Below are positions 5,814-32,487 of a DNA stretch of 64,000 bases, one piece after another. Origin of the DNA: Novosphingobium sp. UBA6272 (GTDB lineage Bacteria; Pseudomonadota; Alphaproteobacteria; Sphingomonadales; Sphingomonadaceae); assembly GCF_002440635.1 (NCBI RefSeq), contig NZ_DJUW01000006.1, positions 29,016 through 93,015 of the forward strand, in the 5' to 3' direction. Numbering within the stretch: the first letter of the stretch is position 1; each line of letters starts with the position of its first letter. The position numbers were made by a program, and so were the translations under genes. The notes under the pieces were generated by a model. That model worked only from the letters and a program-made list of their open reading frames with translations, was not told where the DNA came from and did not search any database.

Positions 5814-6668
5814 ATGCGATTCTCGGGCAAATGCGTCGTCATCACCGGTGCGGCGTCGGGTATCGGCCGGGCGGCGACGCTGCTGTTTTCGCGCGAGGGT
5901 GCCACGGTTTTTGCCGCCGACCTCAACCTGGCCGGAGCCGAAGCCGTAGCGCGCGAGGGCGAGAATATTATCCCTGCTTCCTGCGATGTCTGCGACGTGG
6001 TCCAGATCAAGTCGCTGATGGACCATGCCGCCGGAACCTGCGGCGGAATCGATGTGGTATTCAACAATGCCGCTGCGGGCGGAGCCCGCGGAACGATCGA
6101 AGAAGTCGATGCCGAGGGGTGGGATCGCACCATGGATTTGGTGCTGCGCTCGGTAGCGATGGGGATTCACCATGCCGTGCCGCATATGAAGCACCGCAAA
6201 GGGGCCTCGATAATCAATACCAGTTCGGTTGCGGCGATCAGCCCGGGCTTTTCGCCGACTGCCTATGCCGTGGCCAAGGCCGGGGTCTTGCACCTGACCA
6301 AGTGTGCGGCGGCTGATTTGGCCAAGCATGGAATCCGCGTGAACGCGGTCCAGCCCGGCTTCATCAATACCAACATCTTCACCTCAGCGCTCGAAATGCC
6401 GGCTGAAATGGTCGAACAGGCAAGGGCGATGATCCTGCAGATGACCTCAAATGCCCAGCCGGTTGCCCGGCCCGGCATGCCCGATGACATTGCCAATGCA
6501 GTCGCCTTCCTGGCCAGCGATGCCGCTGGTTTCATGACAGGCGTTTCATTGGTCGTCGATGGCGGGATGACGGTCGGCCCCAGGCATAGCTGGGATCCGG
6601 AAGCGCCCAGACTGTTCGATGCCTTGCAGGGCATGGCCGAAGCCGCCGGGGTGGCCCCGGCCCAGTGA
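5814..6668 (+). CDS. SDR-family oxidoreductase
   Basis: 'TGAASGIG' motif and 'YAVAKAG' YxxxK. An AAGGAGAGG RBS lies upstream. Confidence 0.85.
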   Translation: MRFSGKCVVITGAASGIGRAATLLFSREGATVFAADLNLAGAEAVAREGENIIPASCDVCDVVQIKSLMDHAAGTCGGIDVVFNNAAAGGARGTIEEVDAEGWDRTMDLVLRSVAMGIHHAVPHMKHRKGASIINTSSVAAISPGFSPTAYAVAKAGVLHLTKCAAADLAKHGIRVNAVQPGFINTNIFTSALEMPAEMVEQARAMILQMTSNAQPVARPGMPDDIANAVAFLASDAAGFMTGVSLVVDGGMTVGPRHSWDPEAPRLFDALQGMAEAAGVAPAQ

Positions 6669-8119
6669 CCGCAACCCACTTTGTCCCCGCAGCCGAGCGG
6701 CTGCCGCTGCGCATCAAGCTGGGCAATGGCCTGGGCTCGATGGCCTATGGCGTAAAGGACAACGGTTTCGCCACGCTGCTGCTGCTGTTTTACAGTCAGG
6801 TTCTGGGGCTGGATGCGCAGCTGGTCGGGCTGATCCTGCTGGTTGCCTTGCTGCTCGATGCGATGATCGATCCGCTGGTCGGCTATTGGAGTGACAAGAC
6901 CCACAGCAAATGGGGCAAGCGCCATCCGTGGATGTATGGCGCGATCCTGCCGATGGCGGGCGCATGGGTCATGCTTTGGCATCCGCCCACTACCAGCGCC
7001 GGCTGGCTCTATGGCTACCTTCTGCTGTTTGCTTTCCTGATGCGCGCCGCGGTGTCGTGCTACGAGATCCCGGCGCTGTCGGTGGTTCCCGGCCTGACCA
7101 GCGACTACGACGAGCGAACTTCGATTACGCGCTGGCGCTTTATTTTTGCCTGGGCCGGAGGCCTTGCCATGCTGATGCTGGCCTTCGGCGTGTTCCTGGT
7201 GCCATCGGCGCGCTATCCGGTCGGCCAGCTCAACCTTGATGGATACGGCTATTACGGCTGGACCGGAGCGGGCATCATGGTCTTCGCGGCGCTGATTGCG
7301 GCGCTTTCCACTCACCGCCGGATTGCTCGGCTCGATAGCGAGCCGCCGGTCCATCTGCCGCTGGGCAAGACCGTCCGCAAGATCGGCCGAACCCTGGCCA
7401 ACCATGCCTTTCTGGTCCTGCTGGCAACGACTTTGTTTGGCTACATCAACCTCGGCATGGCCTATTCGACCGCCACCTATATCCTGACCTATTATTGGGA
7501 AATGCCGCAGGCCGGGTTCCTGGTATACTCGGTCTCGCTGTTCGTGGGGGTAATCGGCGCGTTCCTGCTGATCGGGTTCCTGCAAAGCCGGATCGAGAAG
7601 CGCACTGGCGGCGTTGTCTGCTTGCTGCTTTCGCTGGCCTTTGGGCTTTCGCCGTACCTGCTCCGCTTTGCCGGATTTTTCCCTGAGAACGGGCATGCAG
7701 CCTTGATCCCGGTGCTGTTCACACTGGTGACCGTGTCCAACGGTCTGGCAGTGGCGGCCGGGATGCTGATCCAGTCGATGGGGGCGGACATCATCGAGGC
7801 CTCGCAGGAACGGACCGGAGAGCGGACCGAGGGCCTGTTCTTCTCGGCCTATTTCTTCACCCAGAAATGCGCGACCGGGGTCGGGATTTTCCTGGCCGGA
7901 AGTATCGTCAGCGGTTCGGGGTTCCCGGCCCAGGCGCGACCGGGGGAAGTGTCTGCCGCCGTGCTCGACCAGTTCGCGATCTATTTCGTGATCGCCTATG
8001 CCGTGCTGACCGTGCTGGGTATCGCAGCGATCTCGCGGTTTCCGATCTCACGGGCCGATCATGAACGCCGGATCGCAAACCTCGCTACAGCAAGGTCGGC
8101 CAGTGACAATTCGACTTAA
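6665..8119 (+). CDS. MFS transporter (glycoside-pentoside-hexuronide-like)
   Basis: 484 aa with about 12 hydrophobic segments. The N-terminal 'LGSMAYGVKDNGFATLLLLFYSQVLG' is typical of GPH/MFS_2. 4-nt overlap with the upstream SDR gene. Confidence 0.8.
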   Translation: MTATHFVPAAERLPLRIKLGNGLGSMAYGVKDNGFATLLLLFYSQVLGLDAQLVGLILLVALLLDAMIDPLVGYWSDKTHSKWGKRHPWMYGAILPMAGAWVMLWHPPTTSAGWLYGYLLLFAFLMRAAVSCYEIPALSVVPGLTSDYDERTSITRWRFIFAWAGGLAMLMLAFGVFLVPSARYPVGQLNLDGYGYYGWTGAGIMVFAALIAALSTHRRIARLDSEPPVHLPLGKTVRKIGRTLANHAFLVLLATTLFGYINLGMAYSTATYILTYYWEMPQAGFLVYSVSLFVGVIGAFLLIGFLQSRIEKRTGGVVCLLLSLAFGLSPYLLRFAGFFPENGHAALIPVLFTLVTVSNGLAVAAGMLIQSMGADIIEASQERTGERTEGLFFSAYFFTQKCATGVGIFLAGSIVSGSGFPAQARPGEVSAAVLDQFAIYFVIAYAVLTVLGIAAISRFPISRADHERRIANLATARSASDNST

Positions 8120-25641: not shown

Positions 25642-26211
25642 CTAGTCGGCGATTTCGCAGACCGACATCCGGCCTTCCTGGGTGGTGCGCCATTGCCCGG
25701 TCCAGCGCCCGCCGACGGCATAGGCCGCGACCGGGCATTTGTTCTGGGCGTCGGCCTGGTTCCAGATCGGCCCGGCGTTGACCAGGCGAACCCGCGGCGG
25801 CGGGGGCGGGGGAGGCGGCGGCGGAGCGCTGGCCATGCCGCCCCCGCGGCTCGCCCCGGTAATATCGTAAAGATCGCTGCGCGGACCGCCGCCGGTGCCA
25901 TAGCTGATCTTGCGGCGGAACAGGTCGAGCTGGATCTGCACGTTGCGGCTGGGGTCGTTCAGATAGACCGACCATTCGTCGCGCTGCATCTCGGCAAAGC
26001 GGAACGCCACCTGGCCGCTCCGGTTGAGCTCGGCCCAGCTGCCGTCGGCCTGCCGGACATACTGACCGCCGGCGAACCAGACCGTCCGTACGTTCCAGCC
26101 GTTGACGTCGGTCCCCGGCTGCGCCGCAACCGGCCCCGCCGCCGCCAGCATCAGACCCGCACTGCCCAATCCCGCCAGCGCAAGCGCCAGCGCACCATGA
26201 ATTGCCTTCAT
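25642..26211 (-). CDS. secreted protein with poly-Pro linker and C-terminal Cys-containing lectin-like domain
   Basis: Signal peptide 'MKAIHGALALALAGLGSAG', a P11 run, and C-terminal 'GPIWNQADAQNKCP...WTGQWRTT...MSVCEI', which resembles a mannan-binding-lectin-type domain as I recall it. Confidence 0.6.
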   Translation of the reverse strand: MKAIHGALALALAGLGSAGLMLAAAGPVAAQPGTDVNGWNVRTVWFAGGQYVRQADGSWAELNRSGQVAFRFAEMQRDEWSVYLNDPSRNVQIQLDLFRRKISYGTGGGPRSDLYDITGASRGGGMASAPPPPPPPPPPRVRLVNAGPIWNQADAQNKCPVAAYAVGGRWTGQWRTTQEGRMSVCEIAD

Positions 26212-26331: not shown

Positions 26332-26640
26332 TCAGGCTGCGTCTTTCAGATCAGCCTCACACTTCAGCCGCATCCCCAGCGCCGCCATCACCTTGAGCAG
26401 CGTGTCGAGCGTCGGATTGCCGTTCTCGCTGAGCGCCGTGTAGAGCGCCTGGCGATTGACCCCGGTCTTGGCGGCCAGCTTGGTCATCCCTTCGCTGCGT
26501 GCGATTACCCCCAGCGCATGGGCGATATAGGGCACATGCCCGCTTTCCAGCGCATCGTTGAGCAGATCGATCACGCCATCGGGCGTGGTGATGTATTTGG
26601 CCGCATCGAACGGCGTGGTTTCAAGCTTTGCCATCATCAA
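26332..26640 (-). CDS. HigA-like addiction-module antidote protein (HTH)
   Basis: 'IAHALGVIARSEGMTKLAAKTGVNRQALYTALSENGNPTLDTLLKV' is typical of the TIGR02684 type. Confidence 0.8.
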   Translation of the reverse strand: MMMAKLETTPFDAAKYITTPDGVIDLLNDALESGHVPYIAHALGVIARSEGMTKLAAKTGVNRQALYTALSENGNPTLDTLLKVMAALGMRLKCEADLKDAA

Positions 26641-26688
26641 TTCCTTTGCCCTGTACTTCCCAAGGGACGGGCTGCCCCTCGCCTGATT

Positions 26689-26931
26689 TCAAATTTCCTT
26701 CGCCAAACGCTTCGCCAGCTTGATCGCCCGATCCTGCCCGCGCTTGTCGCTGCCGCACAGCAGGAACACGATCACCCGGCCGCGGATCGTGTAGTAGAGC
26801 CGATAGCCCGGCCCAAAATCGACCCTGAGCTCGCTGACTCCGTCACCAACCGTCTTCCAATCGCCCAACAGCCCTGACCGCACCCGAACCAGCCGCGTGG
26901 CGATCTTCTCCTTGGCCCGCACGTCGGGCAA
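26689..26931 (-). CDS. RelE/ParE-superfamily (HigB-like 'addiction module killer') toxin, 5' end defective
   Basis: 'GVSELRVDFGPGYRLYYT...LLCGSDKRGQDRAI' toxin core. The homologous frame stays open to 26985, but there is no ATG or GTG, only a TTG at 26931. Confidence 0.6.
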   Translation of the reverse strand: MPDVRAKEKIATRLVRVRSGLLGDWKTVGDGVSELRVDFGPGYRLYYTIRGRVIVFLLCGSDKRGQDRAIKLAKRLAKEI

Positions 26932-27239
26932 ACCATCGAGCCATTCGGCGAACTCGGCGGTTTGCTCGATCTGATATATTGTCGGTTATACACGACGAAT
27001 TGGAGTTTGGGTCAAGGGATGTGCCTGGAGGTTTGGCGAATTGTAACCGAAATCCAGGTGCCCCCGCATCGTCATCCGACATCGGGTCGGTCGATCTGGC
27101 GAGACGACCTTGAACAGCCGGGGGCTGTTCAACCCGTTGCCCTCGACCCGGGATCCCGCTTCCTTCTGCGACGTTGGAATAGGCAGCTGGACCCCGGATC
27201 AAGTCCGGGGTGACGAGTTGGGTTTGGGGGTTGTTGCGG

Positions 27240-27254
27240 CTGTCACCGTTACCC
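27240..27254. repeat. left arm of inverted repeat CTGTCACCGTTACCC
   Basis: Its reverse complement matches 29038..29052 at 14/15 positions. It abuts the stop codon of the 181-aa gene. Confidence 0.55.
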
Positions 27255-27799
27255 TAAGCTGTAAATCTATGGGGAACAGGAAGTAGGACGCGAGACAGAA
27301 AATTAGCGAACCGGAGTTGAAAATTCTCCCGATACATGTCGTTTAGGATGCAGCGCCGCTGAACCTCCGCAGCGTTGATCTGACGATAGAGTTCGTTCGT
27401 TGCTAAGCAAAAAACAGACCTGAAGTCAAAAGTCAGACTCGGCAACCCAACGGCGGCAGAATCTCTCTCGGGGGGTACCGCAGAGAACAATTGAAACCGC
27501 TCGTTCTTGTTATTCTCGACGGGCTTCCAAAGATCCCGACCGCCGATGCTAGCTTTTATGGATGTTGATAGCTGACCTTCAATCAACAGGATATACTCTA
27601 GATTACCAGCGAGGCCAGATTTTCTCTTATCAAAATCTTGCAAGAGATCGCAGTCTTGATTGACTATTATAGCATATCTCTTAATTTTGGGCTGCACCTC
27701 GTCTTCTTGGGGCAGATAGTCATGAATTGTCAGTCCGCTAAGAATCTCACCTTGGCGAAGTTCCAAATTACCGGAAGGGGAAAATGCCTCTACCGCCAT
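27254..27799 (-). CDS. 181-aa orphan protein (cassette gene C)
   Basis: Low-GC ORF whose ATG lies 3 nt after the gene B stop. It has 'LRQGEIL...YAIIVNQDCDLLQ' and no family I recognise. Confidence 0.7.
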   Translation of the reverse strand: MAVEAFSPSGNLELRQGEILSGLTIHDYLPQEDEVQPKIKRYAIIVNQDCDLLQDFDKRKSGLAGNLEYILLIEGQLSTSIKASIGGRDLWKPVENNKNERFQLFSAVPPERDSAAVGLPSLTFDFRSVFCLATNELYRQINAAEVQRRCILNDMYRENFQLRFANFLSRVLLPVPHRFTA

Positions 27800-27802
27800 C
27801 CG

Positions 27803-28276
27803 TCAATCTGCAGAAAACACTTCAGATTCGCTTGCTTCGCGAATCCTTTTTGCCTTCTTGCGCTCTAACAGTCCATATACGCCAGCGTTCTCGACCTCGA
27901 GTGATCGATAGTGCTGATGAATATCCATTAGAGTTGACGCTGCTTCTTTAACAGCATTGTCGCCCAAATAAGACAGAATATAGAGGGACACAATTCTCGA
28001 ATACGCGGCATCTGTCAGATGCTCAAGCCTATTGTGGTCACCCAAACTCACATTTGCAGTGCAAAGAACTCCGCCATGAGAATCGTCGTCCCAGCTGTGA
28101 AAGCTAAGGTGCCCGCGGTCCCAGAGCGTCGTGCAGTCGATCTCTGATCGCCCACCGAAATGCCCTACCGATGCGCCGATTATAGATGGCAAAGAGGTTG
28201 TGAACTTCGCACGCCTCAATTCGTCCACCGCGATAGAAGTCGAAGTCAATGATGTATTGGGTTTCATCGGAATCAT
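27803..28276 (-). CDS. small helical protein (cassette gene B), start uncertain
   Basis: Maximal ORF of 157 aa. Its first 173 nt overlap the well-supported 3' end of gene A, so the real start is probably internal (e.g. GTG 28051, giving 82 aa). Confidence 0.45.
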   Translation of the reverse strand: MIPMKPNTSLTSTSIAVDELRRAKFTTSLPSIIGASVGHFGGRSEIDCTTLWDRGHLSFHSWDDDSHGGVLCTANVSLGDHNRLEHLTDAAYSRIVSLYILSYLGDNAVKEAASTLMDIHQHYRSLEVENAGVYGLLERKKAKRIREASESEVFSAD

Positions 28277-28892
28277 CCGTTTCTACAATGCCATGTTGAA
28301 AGAAAAGTCCATCTCCAGTCTCATGATCCAAGCATCTCACCTGATGCTGAGCTTCATCTACCAACCCTTCCCAATCAGAAGACACCAGCTCAGACACAAC
28401 TGGTTCTGACAGCAGTTCAGACCAAGCGATTTCATCCAGACCTAGCGAACTTCTCGTAATTACATTGCGGTATCTTAGGCCAATCCTGTTGTAAAATACT
28501 GGTCTATAGAGCTCGCTTAGTGCTGCAAATGCTGCTTCACATGTATCCCAGAACACCTCCCACCGCGCGTATGCTTTCGTCGAGATTGTAAGTGCATCAG
28601 CGAGGAGCGTGACTGATACTACATTATCTTCGTCACGAAATGTATACCCCGTACCGGCAGTTGGTGCTCCGATCGCCTGGAGCAATTCCTGCGGAATCTG
28701 CTGCGCCGCCCGACTGGCAGATCGCTCCAATATGGGGAGCCGATCTCGCAGCCGCTCTTGAAAATCAGCTGGCGGCTGCGCTTCAATTTTCAAGATTGTT
28801 GGGTAGCGAACCTGACAAATGACCTCGCGCAGCGGATTTCGCTCATAAACGGTTCGTGGCGCATCTGGAAAAAGATTATCAATTCCAGGCAT
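28104..28892 (-). CDS. TIGR04255-family protein (cassette gene A, function unknown)
   Basis: The N-terminal 'YERNPLREVICQVRYP' and central 'NRIGLRYRNVI' fit my recollection of the TIGR04255 model. 262 aa is a typical length. Confidence 0.75.
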   Translation of the reverse strand: MPGIDNLFPDAPRTVYERNPLREVICQVRYPTILKIEAQPPADFQERLRDRLPILERSASRAAQQIPQELLQAIGAPTAGTGYTFRDEDNVVSVTLLADALTISTKAYARWEVFWDTCEAAFAALSELYRPVFYNRIGLRYRNVITRSSLGLDEIAWSELLSEPVVSELVSSDWEGLVDEAQHQVRCLDHETGDGLFFQHGIVETDDSDETQYIIDFDFYRGGRIEACEVHNLFAIYNRRIGRAFRWAIRDRLHDALGPRAP

Positions 28893-29037
28893 CTATTTTC
28901 TTTTCCAACGGGTTTTCCACATTCTGGATATCTTCATGACGAATGCAGATTGCAAGGTCTAGTCTGAAATTGTGTTTTTCCAGAGCATCAGCACCGGCTT
29001 CGCTGCCTCACCTGGCTCGGTGCAGTGGGCGCTGCGC

Positions 29038-29052
29038 GGGTTACGGTGACAG
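29038..29052. repeat. right arm of inverted repeat GGGTTACGGTGACAG
   Basis: See 27240..27254. Confidence 0.55.
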
Positions 29053-29110
29053 GTCGTAAACCCCCAAAACGCCCAGTGAATTAGATCTTCGGCCAACTTC
29101 GCCTGGAAAC

Positions 29111-29966
<856 letters not shown>

Positions 29967-30445
29967 TTAGGCAGCCCAACAAACCCGACAAGTTCTGTTA
30001 CATCTTACACGCTGCGCAGCGGTTAGCGATGTTGCCGTCCTGCTACTCGCTCGGCGAATTTTTTGTCGGCGATTCCGTTTCGTCGGTCAGATTGACGCCC
30101 AAACCATGACGTTCCCGGCCATGTGCGCAAATCGTACCATTGTTACTGGTATTGCTGCAAAGACCGCTCGCCTCACCCCAATATTCGGGGCAACTACAAG
30201 AGCTGCATCCATGGGCCATACGCCTATCCTTCCATATTTGAGCTCACGTCGATCAAATATCTCATCACCAAGAGCCGTATCATATAAGCTTCTTGCGGCA
30301 ACCCTAGGTGATTTCACAAGCCCGCACCTGAAAATGAGGCACGAATCGCGTGCAAGTAATATTCACCTAGGTGCAGGGTATATTTGCAACAGAGGTTTTG
30401 CAATAGTCCTGAGAATAGGCGCCGCCTATTCTCACGCTACGTACT
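29967..30445. mobile_element. low-GC insert between the thiC direct repeats (probable relic of an integrated element)
   Basis: 479 bp that is AT-richer than its flanks and bounded by the 294-bp direct repeats. It has no convincing ORF and is dense in short palindromes and repeats. Confidence 0.45.
30411..30433 (-). terminator. perfect hairpin just downstream of thiC stop
   Basis: GAGAATAGGCG-c-CGCCTATTCTC, an 11-bp stem, 13 nt after the stop. No T-tract follows, so terminator function is uncertain. Confidence 0.4.
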
Positions 30446-32462
<2,017 letters not shown>

Positions 32463-32487
32463 GGCTGGTTCTAGGCGCGCGGAGCGG

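Follow-up and report, generated by a model that had tools for sequence, protein, structure and literature searches.

What occupies the trough of low GC content that interrupts this otherwise GC-rich Novosphingobium sequence? The window, meaning the whole stretch of 64,000 nucleotides analysed here, drops from a GC content of 0.65–0.75 on either side to 0.43–0.53 over approximately 27250–29050. The ORF list places three minus-strand genes inside this trough, herein termed A, B, and C. An initial annotation, made from the sequence alone, took them for a self-contained accessory module of the toxin-immunity or abortive-infection type. The reading favoured here, with a probability of roughly 55%, is that the cassette represents, in intact form, a widespread and so far unnamed three-gene conflict module resembling toxin–antitoxin systems, with A as the hub, B as the adaptor or antitoxin, and C as the toxin.

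Composition and boundaries of the cassette

The GC drop described in the initial annotation is borne out by composition, with 0.489 for the cassette (27255–29037) versus 0.652 for the whole window. The three same-strand ORFs are packed in the manner of an operon, at the coordinates given earlier (Table 1). The source record annotates neither B nor C. None of the three is a chance ORF, as dozens of genomes have homologues of all three in this order.

Table 1. Features of the cassette, with positions counted from the first nucleotide of the window
Feature	Position	Strand	Description
Left inverted-repeat arm	27222..27254	.	core 27240–27254; abuts the stop codon of C
Gene C	27254..27799	-	181 aa, putative toxin/effector; predicted MazF/PemK-type SH3-like barrel with helical insertions
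Gene B	27803..28219	-	138 aa from TTG 28219
A/B overlap	28104..28219	-	116 nt; B in +1 frame relative to A
Gene A	28104..28892	-	262 aa, TIGR04255 family protein
Shine-Dalgarno–like GGTGGA	28224..28229	-	4 nt upstream of the TTG of B, within the coding sequence of A
Leader 5′ of gene A	28893..29037	-	145 nt, GC 0.503
Right inverted-repeat arm	29038..29070	.	33 nt, 73% complementary to 27222–27254; core 29038–29052

The leader 28893–29037 presumably holds the promoter of the module. It had been called AT-rich, which its composition contradicts, the leader being no more AT-rich than the genes. A promoter scan of the leader gave no match to the sigma-70 consensus, and the same scan returned terminator-like matches at chance level only. 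No Rfam family was found in the leader; a sub-threshold Rfam match to sX13 inside A was dismissed.

The inverted repeat said to bound the cassette was confirmed. Its core CTGTCACCGTTACCC (27240–27254) pairs with CTGTCACCGTAACCC (29038–29052, minus strand) at 14 of 15 positions, and the pairing extends to 33 nt at 73%. Both arms coincide exactly with the GC transitions. No further copy of the 15-mer occurs in the window at up to one mismatch; with two mismatches allowed, the expected number of matches is 0.10, a test that is circular because the pattern was derived from the same data.

Gene A, the constant component

Gene A reaches 143.4 bits against the NCBIfam model TIGR04255.1 (cutoff 30, E 1.1e-41), with residues 16–258 aligned to profile positions 2–252 of 252. 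The earlier assignment to this family is thereby upheld, at nearly five-fold over the cutoff and with near full-length coverage. The AF2 model of A (pLDDT 92.5, pTM 0.88) predicts a duplicated TBP-like fold of the type β-α-β4-α that has no close solved relative. Foldseek searches with this model returned weak matches only, namely, to AdoMetDC, TBP, guanidino kinases, and CYTH proteins, and no resemblance to a known chaperone, sensor, or regulator. Pfam yielded no match for A, SecB included, and the sole match returned by a search of its profile against the PDB, an Sp100 helix, was rejected as spurious. The only match of A, B, or C in PADLOC-DB 2.0.0 was AbiEi, for A, at an E-value of 0.017, and none of the three proteins had a match in PHROGs. 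In the collection of papers searched, none mentions TIGR04255, IPR026349, or CHP04255.

Conservation of the three-gene order

For comparison, 80 loci were collected as the best tblastn matches, fetched with an alignment of 22 closer A sequences; because the best matches were kept, this set is biased toward the subfamily of the window. Of these 80 genomes, fetched with A alone, 53 have a C-family ORF approximately 300–400 nt beyond A; they comprise Proteobacteria, Planctomycetes, Chloroflexi, Cyanobacteria, Acidobacteria, and Actinobacteria. The co-occurrence of A, B, and C homologues that the initial annotation set as a test is hence found, and in the same order. In the loci examined, every C found by searching with the C profile lay downstream of A. 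Most other loci have a B–C gap of roughly 1–25 nt; in the window, the frame of B ends at 27803, its stop lying 3 nt before the ATG of C.

The GC content of the module is below that of its host in 63/63 loci, and the flanks of the module are unrelated between loci. Low GC thus characterises the module family and does not prove recent arrival.

Gene B, a gene overlapping A

B had been described as a small ORF confined to the gap between A and C. This description does not hold since the frame of B is open for 179 nt upstream of the stop of A, the ORF spanning 27803–28276, and the likely start lies inside A. The most likely start is TTG 28219, which places the first 38 codons of B within the overlap; alternative in-frame starts are GTG 28228, ATG 28267, and ATG 28276, the longest product having 157 aa. 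The sequence upstream of this start at −116 reads 'tcgcggtggacgaa', and the equivalent site in other loci is ACGGAGG or GGAG. Expression of B in the window is less certain because a TTG with a weak GGTGGA takes the place of an ATG with GGAGG.

Relative to A, B lies in the +1 frame in 52/53 loci. This frame is stop-free in 77/83 loci, compared with 31.9 expected, and the last 35 codons of A contain 13 +1 stops, compared with 78.6 expected. The +2 frame, which serves as a control, shows no depletion (9 stop-free loci versus 7.4 expected). B starts with ATG in 68/74 loci, mostly after a GGAG-type motif. The starts cluster at −107 and −110 from the stop of A and at alignment columns 82 and 85, and this ATG cluster lies right after the last +1 stops. 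Both the ribosome-binding site and the start of B are located inside A in 71/80 genomes. Synonymous conservation in A peaks (0.43–0.46 versus 0.34 upstream) in two 36-codon blocks that span the ribosome-binding site and start of B, with a modest excess across the overlap proper (0.38 versus 0.34). A 104-nt A/B overlap has been annotated independently by RefSeq/PGAP in a homologue on a Rhizobium plasmid. These patterns indicate that B is a real overlapping gene. Long out-of-frame overlaps kept across bacterial phyla are rare.

Beyond the overlap, B keeps the motif R..C......LP...L.EA.E.L.....FY and a C-terminal RP..F tail followed by acidic residues. A search with the B profile found only 7 proteins in 5.8 billion; B has largely been missed by annotation because it begins approximately 110 nt inside the preceding gene. 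No match to B was found in Pfam, NCBIfam, or PADLOC, nor was a recognisable antitoxin or DNA-binding domain of the RHH, HTH, AbrB, or Phd type. Its profile gave a single match in the PDB, at an E-value of 0.42, and nothing usable.

The near-constant +1 frame, open for at least 105 nt before the stop of A, and the lack of a strong start of B in the window could also be explained by a programmed +1 ribosomal frameshift near the end of A, by which an A–B fusion is made instead of a separate B. Such a mechanism is very improbable, as the in-frame ATG sits at one alignment position with its GGAG-type motif mostly at the usual spacing, and as the junction in L019 and the FPDNC-type loci (L067, L069, L073, and L078) is a simple ATGA, with the other frame in use. 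Moreover, no slippery or hungry-codon motif is conspicuous in the junctions as displayed.

Gene C, a predicted MazF-type fold

The AF2 model of C (pLDDT 91.2, pTM 0.85) predicts a MazF/CcdB SH3-like barrel with a C-terminal helix. In a Foldseek search of the PDB with this model, MazF, EndoA, and MoxT structures account for all of the top 50 matches, with E-values from 2.7e-3 to approximately 7e-2, probabilities of 0.93–1.00, and target-normalised TM scores of 0.54–0.68. As modelled, the likeness to MazF-type toxins is at the fold level only. No Pfam family matched C at E-values up to 1, and so there was no PemK_toxin match; its profile matched no PDB chain at E-values up to 10, and hhalign of this profile with Bacillus subtilis EndoA gave a probability of 0.4%.

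The family alignment reveals the invariant motifs QGEIL (16–20) and DCDLxQD (49–55), and the invariant residues are Q16, G17, E18, D49, C50, D51, Q54, D55, N97, D125, R139, Q140, R148, E158, R163, and R170. All of them are kept in the C of the window. This set, with its acidic DCD and QD, does not resemble the Arg and Thr that form the catalytic pair in MazF RNases.

C is not the orphan it was taken for: the family comprises 1,964 representative clusters by an exhaustive search, and the 53 genomes mentioned above have a C homologue after A. A near-orphan status suggested by a word-indexed search with 15 matches was overturned by the profile search of the loci fetched with A and by the exhaustive search. 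In agreement with the initial annotation, searches of NCBIfam, Pfam, PADLOC, and PHROGs matched C to no housekeeping family; the opinion that the activity could not be deduced from sequence was too strict because the fold points to a toxin. C as a polymorphic or contact-dependent toxin was considered and rejected, the protein having 181 aa and neither a trafficking domain nor a trafficking signal.

Exchange of effectors and co-evolution

The position of the third gene is not always occupied by C. It is taken by a PtuB-like HNH protein in L022 (60 bits), by a PDC-M32B-like protein in L082 (26.5 bits), and elsewhere by a PIN (40.9 bits) or Peptidase_C39 (62.4 bits) domain, as well as by several unrecognised families. 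B varies along with the type of the third gene, and A is constant across at least eight different B–C types. The C-terminal domain of the L082 B matches PDC-M32A (30.9 bits); hence, the tail of B and the effector travel as a pair. In L056, A shares 71% identity with its counterpart in MazF-type loci, yet the third gene encodes a C39 peptidase, which suggests a recent effector swap. Pairwise identities correlate at 0.76 for A–C, 0.73 for A–B, and 0.69 for B–C, and mean identity is 19% for B, 33% for C, and 36% for A, B being the fastest-evolving component. By these comparisons, A, B, and C co-evolve, and B and the third gene are exchanged together.

These data bear on two alternatives. By the first, B and C are an ordinary two-gene type II toxin–antitoxin pair, and A is functionally separate, e.g., an enzyme or ligand-binding protein that only shares the operon. 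The 3-nt gap is the classic antitoxin–toxin layout, the fold of A gives no hint of a toxin–antitoxin role, some Firmicutes TIGR04255 genes are followed by GNAT/pncA/pncB and lack B- or C-type partners, and the C-terminal domain of the L082 B together with its effector resembles a two-gene PADLOC candidate that has no A. Against this stand the ribosome-binding site and start of B inside A, in a frame held open by selection, the attachment of at least eight B–C types to one constant A, the correlations of 0.73–0.76 that tie A to both partners, and the recovery of C only downstream of A. A separate role of A is thus quite improbable.

By the second, the module is not based on a toxin; it would be a non-lethal regulatory, stress-response, or nucleic-acid/small-molecule-handling complex with the barrel of C as a binding domain. 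C indeed lacks the catalytic residues of MazF and does not resemble known toxins in sequence, SH3-like barrels often serve as binding folds, and the neighbours are mostly housekeeping genes. The third genes found in place of C, however, encode domains typical of toxins or effectors (PIN, PtuB-like HNH, and C39 peptidase), B evolves very fast, and the consistently low GC, unrelated flanks, and presence on phage and plasmid also disfavour this reading, which is rather improbable.

Genomic context and mobility

The toxin–antitoxin pair with a damaged toxin start and the thiC duplication, interpreted earlier as an integration scar, are both real. The Gp49-like toxin of this pair has ATA where ATG is expected. 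Relatives lie in P2-like Burkholderia phages between the toprim/integrase genes and the portal gene gpQ, beside a HigBA pair. This position is the P2-like phage defence hotspot of PMC9122126. On the Rhizobium plasmid, the relative adjoins a multiubiquitin/ThiF/DUF6527 operon and IS110. A general defence-island context, as initially envisaged, does not emerge: most of the immediately adjacent genes have housekeeping roles and few belong to defence systems, and among the two nearest ORFs per locus, no enrichment of defence genes was seen. The self-contained accessory module fits the effector-type third genes and the phage defence hotspot, as it does the unrelated flanks, the low GC throughout the family, and the MazF-type fold of C. 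The GC trough of the window would be a self-contained conflict cassette beside a decaying HigBA-type pair downstream of thiC.

The cassette itself might be a decaying remnant in which B is no longer properly expressed, the family being functional elsewhere. Such a state would agree with the best start of B being a TTG after GGTGGA, where most homologues have ATG after GGAGG, with the ATA start of the adjacent toxin, and with damaged copies in other genomes (an IS1595 insertion in L001, a split C in L028, and a split A in L063). It is improbable given that the three ORFs are intact and of full length, that every invariant residue of C and all invariant columns of the family alignment of A are kept, and that an identical A with the same layout occurs in several independent assemblies. 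Furthermore, if C is toxic, an intact toxin with an unexpressed antitoxin would be counter-selected.

A further question is how the cassette moves. It may be a non-autonomous mobile element with terminal inverted repeats that is mobilised in trans, a reading that concerns movement and is compatible with the conflict module. Besides the coincidence of the repeat arms with the GC transitions, similar bracketing is seen for the modules of L043, by an inverted repeat of 75 nt or more, and of L062, by a 42-nt terminator hairpin present twice; in both, the repeats also enclose a leader of roughly 30–120 nt 5′ of A, as measured from the longest A ORF. Bracketing repeats exceed all 20 shuffles in 9/64 loci, compared with approximately 3 expected. 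Most loci, however, have no such repeat, and the bracketing sequences are unrelated between loci and thus point to host palindromes rather than element ends. Neither a transposase nor, as had been noted, a recombinase is present in or beside the cassette. In the window, no direct repeat flanks the arms as a target-site duplication would; two metagenome pattern scans found no empty site, and an exact look-up of the neighbouring 189-aa protein returned the source contig only. Mobilisation in trans is rather unlikely.

Proposed mechanism

In the conflict module, C would be the toxic effector, in this copy of the MazF/CcdB-type fold. B would be its cognate neutraliser or adaptor, translated in the +1 frame from a start codon within A, approximately 116 nt from its 3′ end, with a fast-evolving body and a conserved C-terminal tail that may be matched to the particular effector. 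A would act as the constant hub, either as the sensor of a trigger or as a stabiliser or regulator of B. Once A–B is perturbed, e.g., when a phage infects or the element is lost, C would be released, and the pay-off would be phage defence or addiction. The toxicity of C, its neutralisation through binding by B, the role of A, and the nature of the pay-off are what we infer. The gene order and the A/B overlap, with its frame and ribosome-binding site, are conserved, and the module has effector families in common with known or candidate defence systems. B followed by C with a 3-nt gap is the usual antitoxin-then-toxin order, and the two genes have the adjacency, co-orientation, tight spacing, and correlated identities (0.69) of type II toxin–antitoxin pairs.

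With this proposal, TIGR04255, long labelled 'sporadically distributed, function unknown', gains a testable setting as the fixed partner of interchangeable toxin–adaptor pairs, a hidden gene is exposed in an overlap with clear signatures of selection, and the GC trough of this genome would be explained by a conflict cassette. If the module serves defence, a new fold for a sensor or hub would join the catalogue along with several new effector families, including a MazF-fold C family of approximately 2,000 clusters, and the L056 locus would offer a clean natural experiment in effector swapping, with a similar A and a different third gene.

A bolder version is possible but tentative, namely, that TIGR04255 modules form a new phylum-spanning, three-component class of anti-phage or abortive-infection systems. 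Herein, the hub would detect an infection cue and control, via the nested adaptor, a plug-in toxin such as a MazF-fold, PIN, PtuB-type HNH, or C39 peptidase effector, among others. If so, the overlap of approximately 110 nt would serve as an inbuilt means of setting or coupling the ratio of hub to adaptor, and it would also explain why annotation pipelines missed the system.

Comparison with known systems

An organisational parallel is found in the toxin–antitoxin–chaperone (TAC) systems, in which HigBA, MqsRA, or HicAB is combined with a SecB-like chaperone. Both comprise three genes with a constant third protein and variable toxin–antitoxin pairs, and in both an extra segment would tie the antitoxin to the constant partner. 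TACs are reported to mediate antiphage defence (bioRxiv 10.1101/2024.02.24.581848). However, A is not SecB-like, lacks a Pfam match, and has the predicted duplicated TBP-like fold; the order is hub–adaptor–toxin instead of toxin–antitoxin–chaperone; the hub-proximal segment of B is N-terminal and encoded within A; and no protein of the module is homologous to a TAC component.

MazEF, PemIK, and CcdAB share with the module the predicted MazF/CcdB barrel topology of C and an upstream partner that ends 3 nt before the toxin start. The acidic C terminus of MazE occupies the groove of its toxin, and by analogy, the conserved tail of B, with RP..F and acidic residues, could do the same. These systems differ in showing no sequence similarity. 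C is approximately 65 residues longer, with helical insertions, and carries DCDLxQD where MazF has its Arg/Thr pair. An AbrB or RHH domain is absent from B, and the module contains an obligatorily linked third gene, which is larger and more conserved.

The HNH effectors of Septu (PtuB) and of retron type I-A serve as the third gene in some modules, as in L022 with PtuB, and the PADLOC candidate PDC-M32 has its counterparts in L082, where the third gene is similar to PDC-M32B and the C-terminal domain of B to PDC-M32A. The B and C of the window match no PADLOC model, and the ATPase PtuA is absent. The link to Septu and PDC-M32 is one of shared effectors, not of membership.

In type II Gabija, GajC is a split MazF-like effector of a validated defence system (PMC13069673). 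It sets a precedent for an effector in which a MazF-like fold bears a helical insertion; its partner is the UvrD-type helicase GajB and not a TIGR04255 protein.

The hyperpromiscuous PanA/DUF4065 antitoxin networks (NetFlax; PMC10440598) also have one conserved partner domain, many unrelated toxin families, and rapid partner swapping. In those two-gene systems, the antitoxin is the promiscuous domain itself, whereas in the TIGR04255 module, the constant component and the variable adaptor are two proteins, the genes of which overlap out of frame.

Architecture of the cassette

The GC content falls to 0.43-0.53 across approximately 27250-29050, compared with 0.65-0.75 outside (mean of 0.489 for the cassette and 0.652 for the window). 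The ORF scan and the GC profile agree with the initial annotation on a three-ORF cassette on one strand within this trough. A decaying copy in the window was considered as well; the intact ORFs count against it. In 63/63 loci, the AT content of the module exceeds that of its host, by a mean of 9 points; hence, the trough is a family trait.

Both GC transitions coincide exactly with the arms of an inverted repeat. The repeat search recovered the 14/15 pair described initially as the core of a 33-nt imperfect one. Two of the loci compared with the window (denoted by L numbers) are bracketed similarly, L043 by arms of at least 75 nt (5820-5894 / 7785-7859) and L062 by a duplicated perfect bidirectional terminator hairpin (5825-5866 / 7701-7742). 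Since these bracketing sequences are unrelated among the three loci and most loci have none, they point more to palindromes of the host into which the cassette inserted than to ends specific to the element. Metagenome pattern scans and an exact-protein look-up of the 189-aa neighbor found no empty site.

Neither B nor C is annotated in the identical record DPEK01000005.1 (assembly GCA_003534535.1). The public annotation herein shows a 1.1-kb gap (L085 10789-11914, corresponding to window 27000-28104), and gene C is called in one Logan assembly.

Features of the cassette and its neighbors in the window
Feature	Position	Strand	Remarks
189-aa protein	25642-26211	minus	secreted-looking; poly-proline run; C-terminal MVL (mannan-binding) domain, PF12151, 42.9 bits
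HigBA-type pair	26332-26979	minus	
HigBA-type antidote	26332-26640		PF21716, 81 bits
Gp49/HigB-like toxin, expected start-codon position	26977-26979		ATA; annotated in source record as 96 aa from ATA
Gp49/HigB-like toxin, canonical start	26931		TTG; 80 aa only
Inverted repeat arms	27222-27254 / 29038-29070		33 nt, imperfect
Gene C	27254-27799	minus	181-aa ORF
B reading frame	ends 27803, open back to 28276	minus	ORF scan
Terminator-like hairpin	27824-27846	minus	8-bp stem, then short T-rich stretch; inside B 3' end
B start, best candidate	28219	minus	TTG; GGTGGA upstream; 138 aa; 116-nt overlap with A
B starts, alternatives	28267, 28276	minus	ATG
Gene A	28104-28892	minus	262-aa ORF
thiC end copies	29681-29966 and 30454-30739		last 286 nt of thiC; 96% identity
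Insert between thiC copies	29967-30453		487 bp; GC 0.505
Cys-rich ORF in insert	30043-30219	minus	58 aa; no Pfam match
TPP riboswitch	32360-32466	minus	upstream of thiC; RF00059, 58.8 bits (gathering score 54.3)

Gene A

The assignment of A to TIGR04255 holds, with 143.4 bits against TIGR04255.1 (cutoff 30) and the full profile covered. No Pfam, no PHROG, and no meaningful PADLOC match was obtained. The AlphaFold2 model built from 64 homologues is confident (pLDDT 92.5, pTM 0.88) and shows two beta-alpha-beta4-alpha repeats, and Foldseek returns distant look-alikes only (TM ~0.3: AdoMetDC, TATA-box binding protein, guanidino kinases, and CYTH). Hence, A is predicted to be a duplicated TBP-like fold without a close solved relative.

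Gene C

A word-indexed search with C yielded 15 relatives only, which misleadingly made it appear a near-orphan; profile and exhaustive searches found many more. A profile built from those 15 relatives was run on 80 genomes fetched by A alone (best tblastn matches and thus biased towards the subfamily of the window). It detects a C homologue in 53 of these, ~300-400 nt downstream of A, and the 53 span many phyla. The exhaustive search gave 1,964 representative clusters at E <=1e-3 and 1,122 at <=1e-10, so that C is not the orphan it had been taken for.

In the confidently predicted structure (pLDDT 91.2, pTM 0.85), the best 50 PDB matches by Foldseek are all MazF/EndoA/MoxT toxins, with target-normalized TM scores of 0.54-0.68 against MazF-type chains and a best E value of 2.7e-3. 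Pfam, profile versus PDB, and hhalign comparisons revealed no sequence-level similarity to MazF, and the residues invariant in the family alignment (QGEIL; DCDLxQD; N97; D125; R139 Q140) differ from the MazF catalytic pair. Taken together, the model places C in the MazF/CcdB fold, by fold only and not as a demonstrated MazF family member.

The proposed start of gene B lies within gene A

The boundaries first given for B require the main correction, as its frame is open upstream inside A, where we propose the start. Relative to A, the gene between A and C occupies the +1 frame in 52/53 loci, and this frame is open for at least ~105 nt upstream of the A stop codon. The last 35 codons of A contain 13 +1 stops compared with 78.6 expected from synonymous resampling, and 77/83 loci have none at all (31.9 expected). 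The +2 frame, serving as control, shows stops as expected, and further upstream in A, +1 stops are common (5.7% per codon).

Start codons of B concentrate at two neighboring alignment columns: an ATG occurs at -107 or -110 from the A stop in 68/74 loci, in most cases with ACGGAGG or GGAG upstream of it. Synonymous conservation in A peaks in two 36-codon blocks spanning this ribosome-binding site and start. A fusion of A and B by frameshift was considered; the conserved start and ribosome-binding site of B count against it. Likewise, the overlap counts against a plain two-gene toxin-antitoxin pair to which A is unrelated. In a Rhizobium plasmid homologue, a 104-nt overlap is annotated by the RefSeq pipeline, and the +1 frame recurs in a phage homologue. 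This conserved out-of-frame overlap is an unusual feature of the module.

Beyond the overlap, several motifs of B are conserved, as is its C-terminal tail. Its homologues are very divergent, with 12-25% identity to B of the window, and gene callers almost always miss B: its profile finds 7 proteins among 5.8 billion. The hairpin within its 3' end, ~25 nt upstream of the C start codon, could either lower read-through towards the putative toxin gene or occlude the C ribosome-binding site; terminator-like matches of this kind occur in the region at chance level.

Exchange of the third gene

Of the 27 loci lacking a C homologue, several end at a contig edge, and others carry a different third gene: an HNH nuclease matching Septu PtuB with 60 bits, a PIN domain with 40.9 bits, a Peptidase_C39 with 62.4 bits, a PDC-M32B-like protein, or a member of at least four unknown families. 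This effector repertoire counts against a nontoxic function of the module, which was also considered. B varies together with the third gene while retaining its embedded start. In L082, PDC-M32A is matched by the C-terminal domain of B, which indicates that adaptor tail and effector travel as a unit. L056 (5992-7757) is apparently a recent effector swap: its A shares 71% identity with the A of cyanobacterial loci with a C homologue (MazF-type), and its third gene is a Peptidase_C39. Its B keeps the MazF-type core motif with an extra C-terminal domain added. A, B, and C coevolve (r 0.69-0.76), B being the fastest evolving.

Genomic context

Flanks of the module are unrelated between loci and mostly consist of housekeeping genes, with a few integrases and restriction-modification genes. 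In a related genome, L001 (3599-7742), the module lies directly downstream of thiC, as in the window; identity between both is 88% for thiC compared with 58% for the adjacent A and 45% for C. Between A and B-C, this locus has an inserted IS1595-family transposase together with three small genes, which separate the embedded start of B from its body. In the window, the insert between the thiC copies looks like the scar or remnant of a small element integrated at the thiC 3' end that supplied its own end copy.

Seven P2-like Burkholderia phages carry TIGR04255 modules with a 216-aa effector type between toprim/integrase genes and the portal gpQ, adjoining a HigBA pair. The same position is a defense hotspot of P2-like phages (PMC9122126). 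On a Rhizobium plasmid, the module adjoins a multiubiquitin/ThiF/DUF6527 operon. Damaged copies comprise L028 (1114-2679), with C split into two ORFs ~940 nt apart, and L063 (5923-6789), with A split into two ORFs. TIGR04255 without B/C-type partners in three Firmicutes loci (L077, L080, and L081; Oscillospiraceae, Pseudoflavonifractor) is a separate architecture. L080 and L081 continue with a GNAT-like ORF (by eye) and nicotinamidase-like and NAPRT-like ORFs, and the downstream ORFs of L077 are unlike these.

Comparison with known systems

The best-supported reading of the cassette is a tripartite toxin-antitoxin-like conflict module, in which C would be the toxin, B its cognate adaptor or antitoxin, and A a constant hub. 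The toxicity of C, its neutralization, the role of A, and the choice between defense and addiction are herein what we infer. The literature searched contains no mention of TIGR04255, and PADLOC 2.0.0 does not include an A-B-C system. Toxin-antitoxin-chaperone systems come closest in logic, whereas none of A, B, and C is homologous to their components. We rate the module as belonging among the toxin-based modular conflict systems, a known class.
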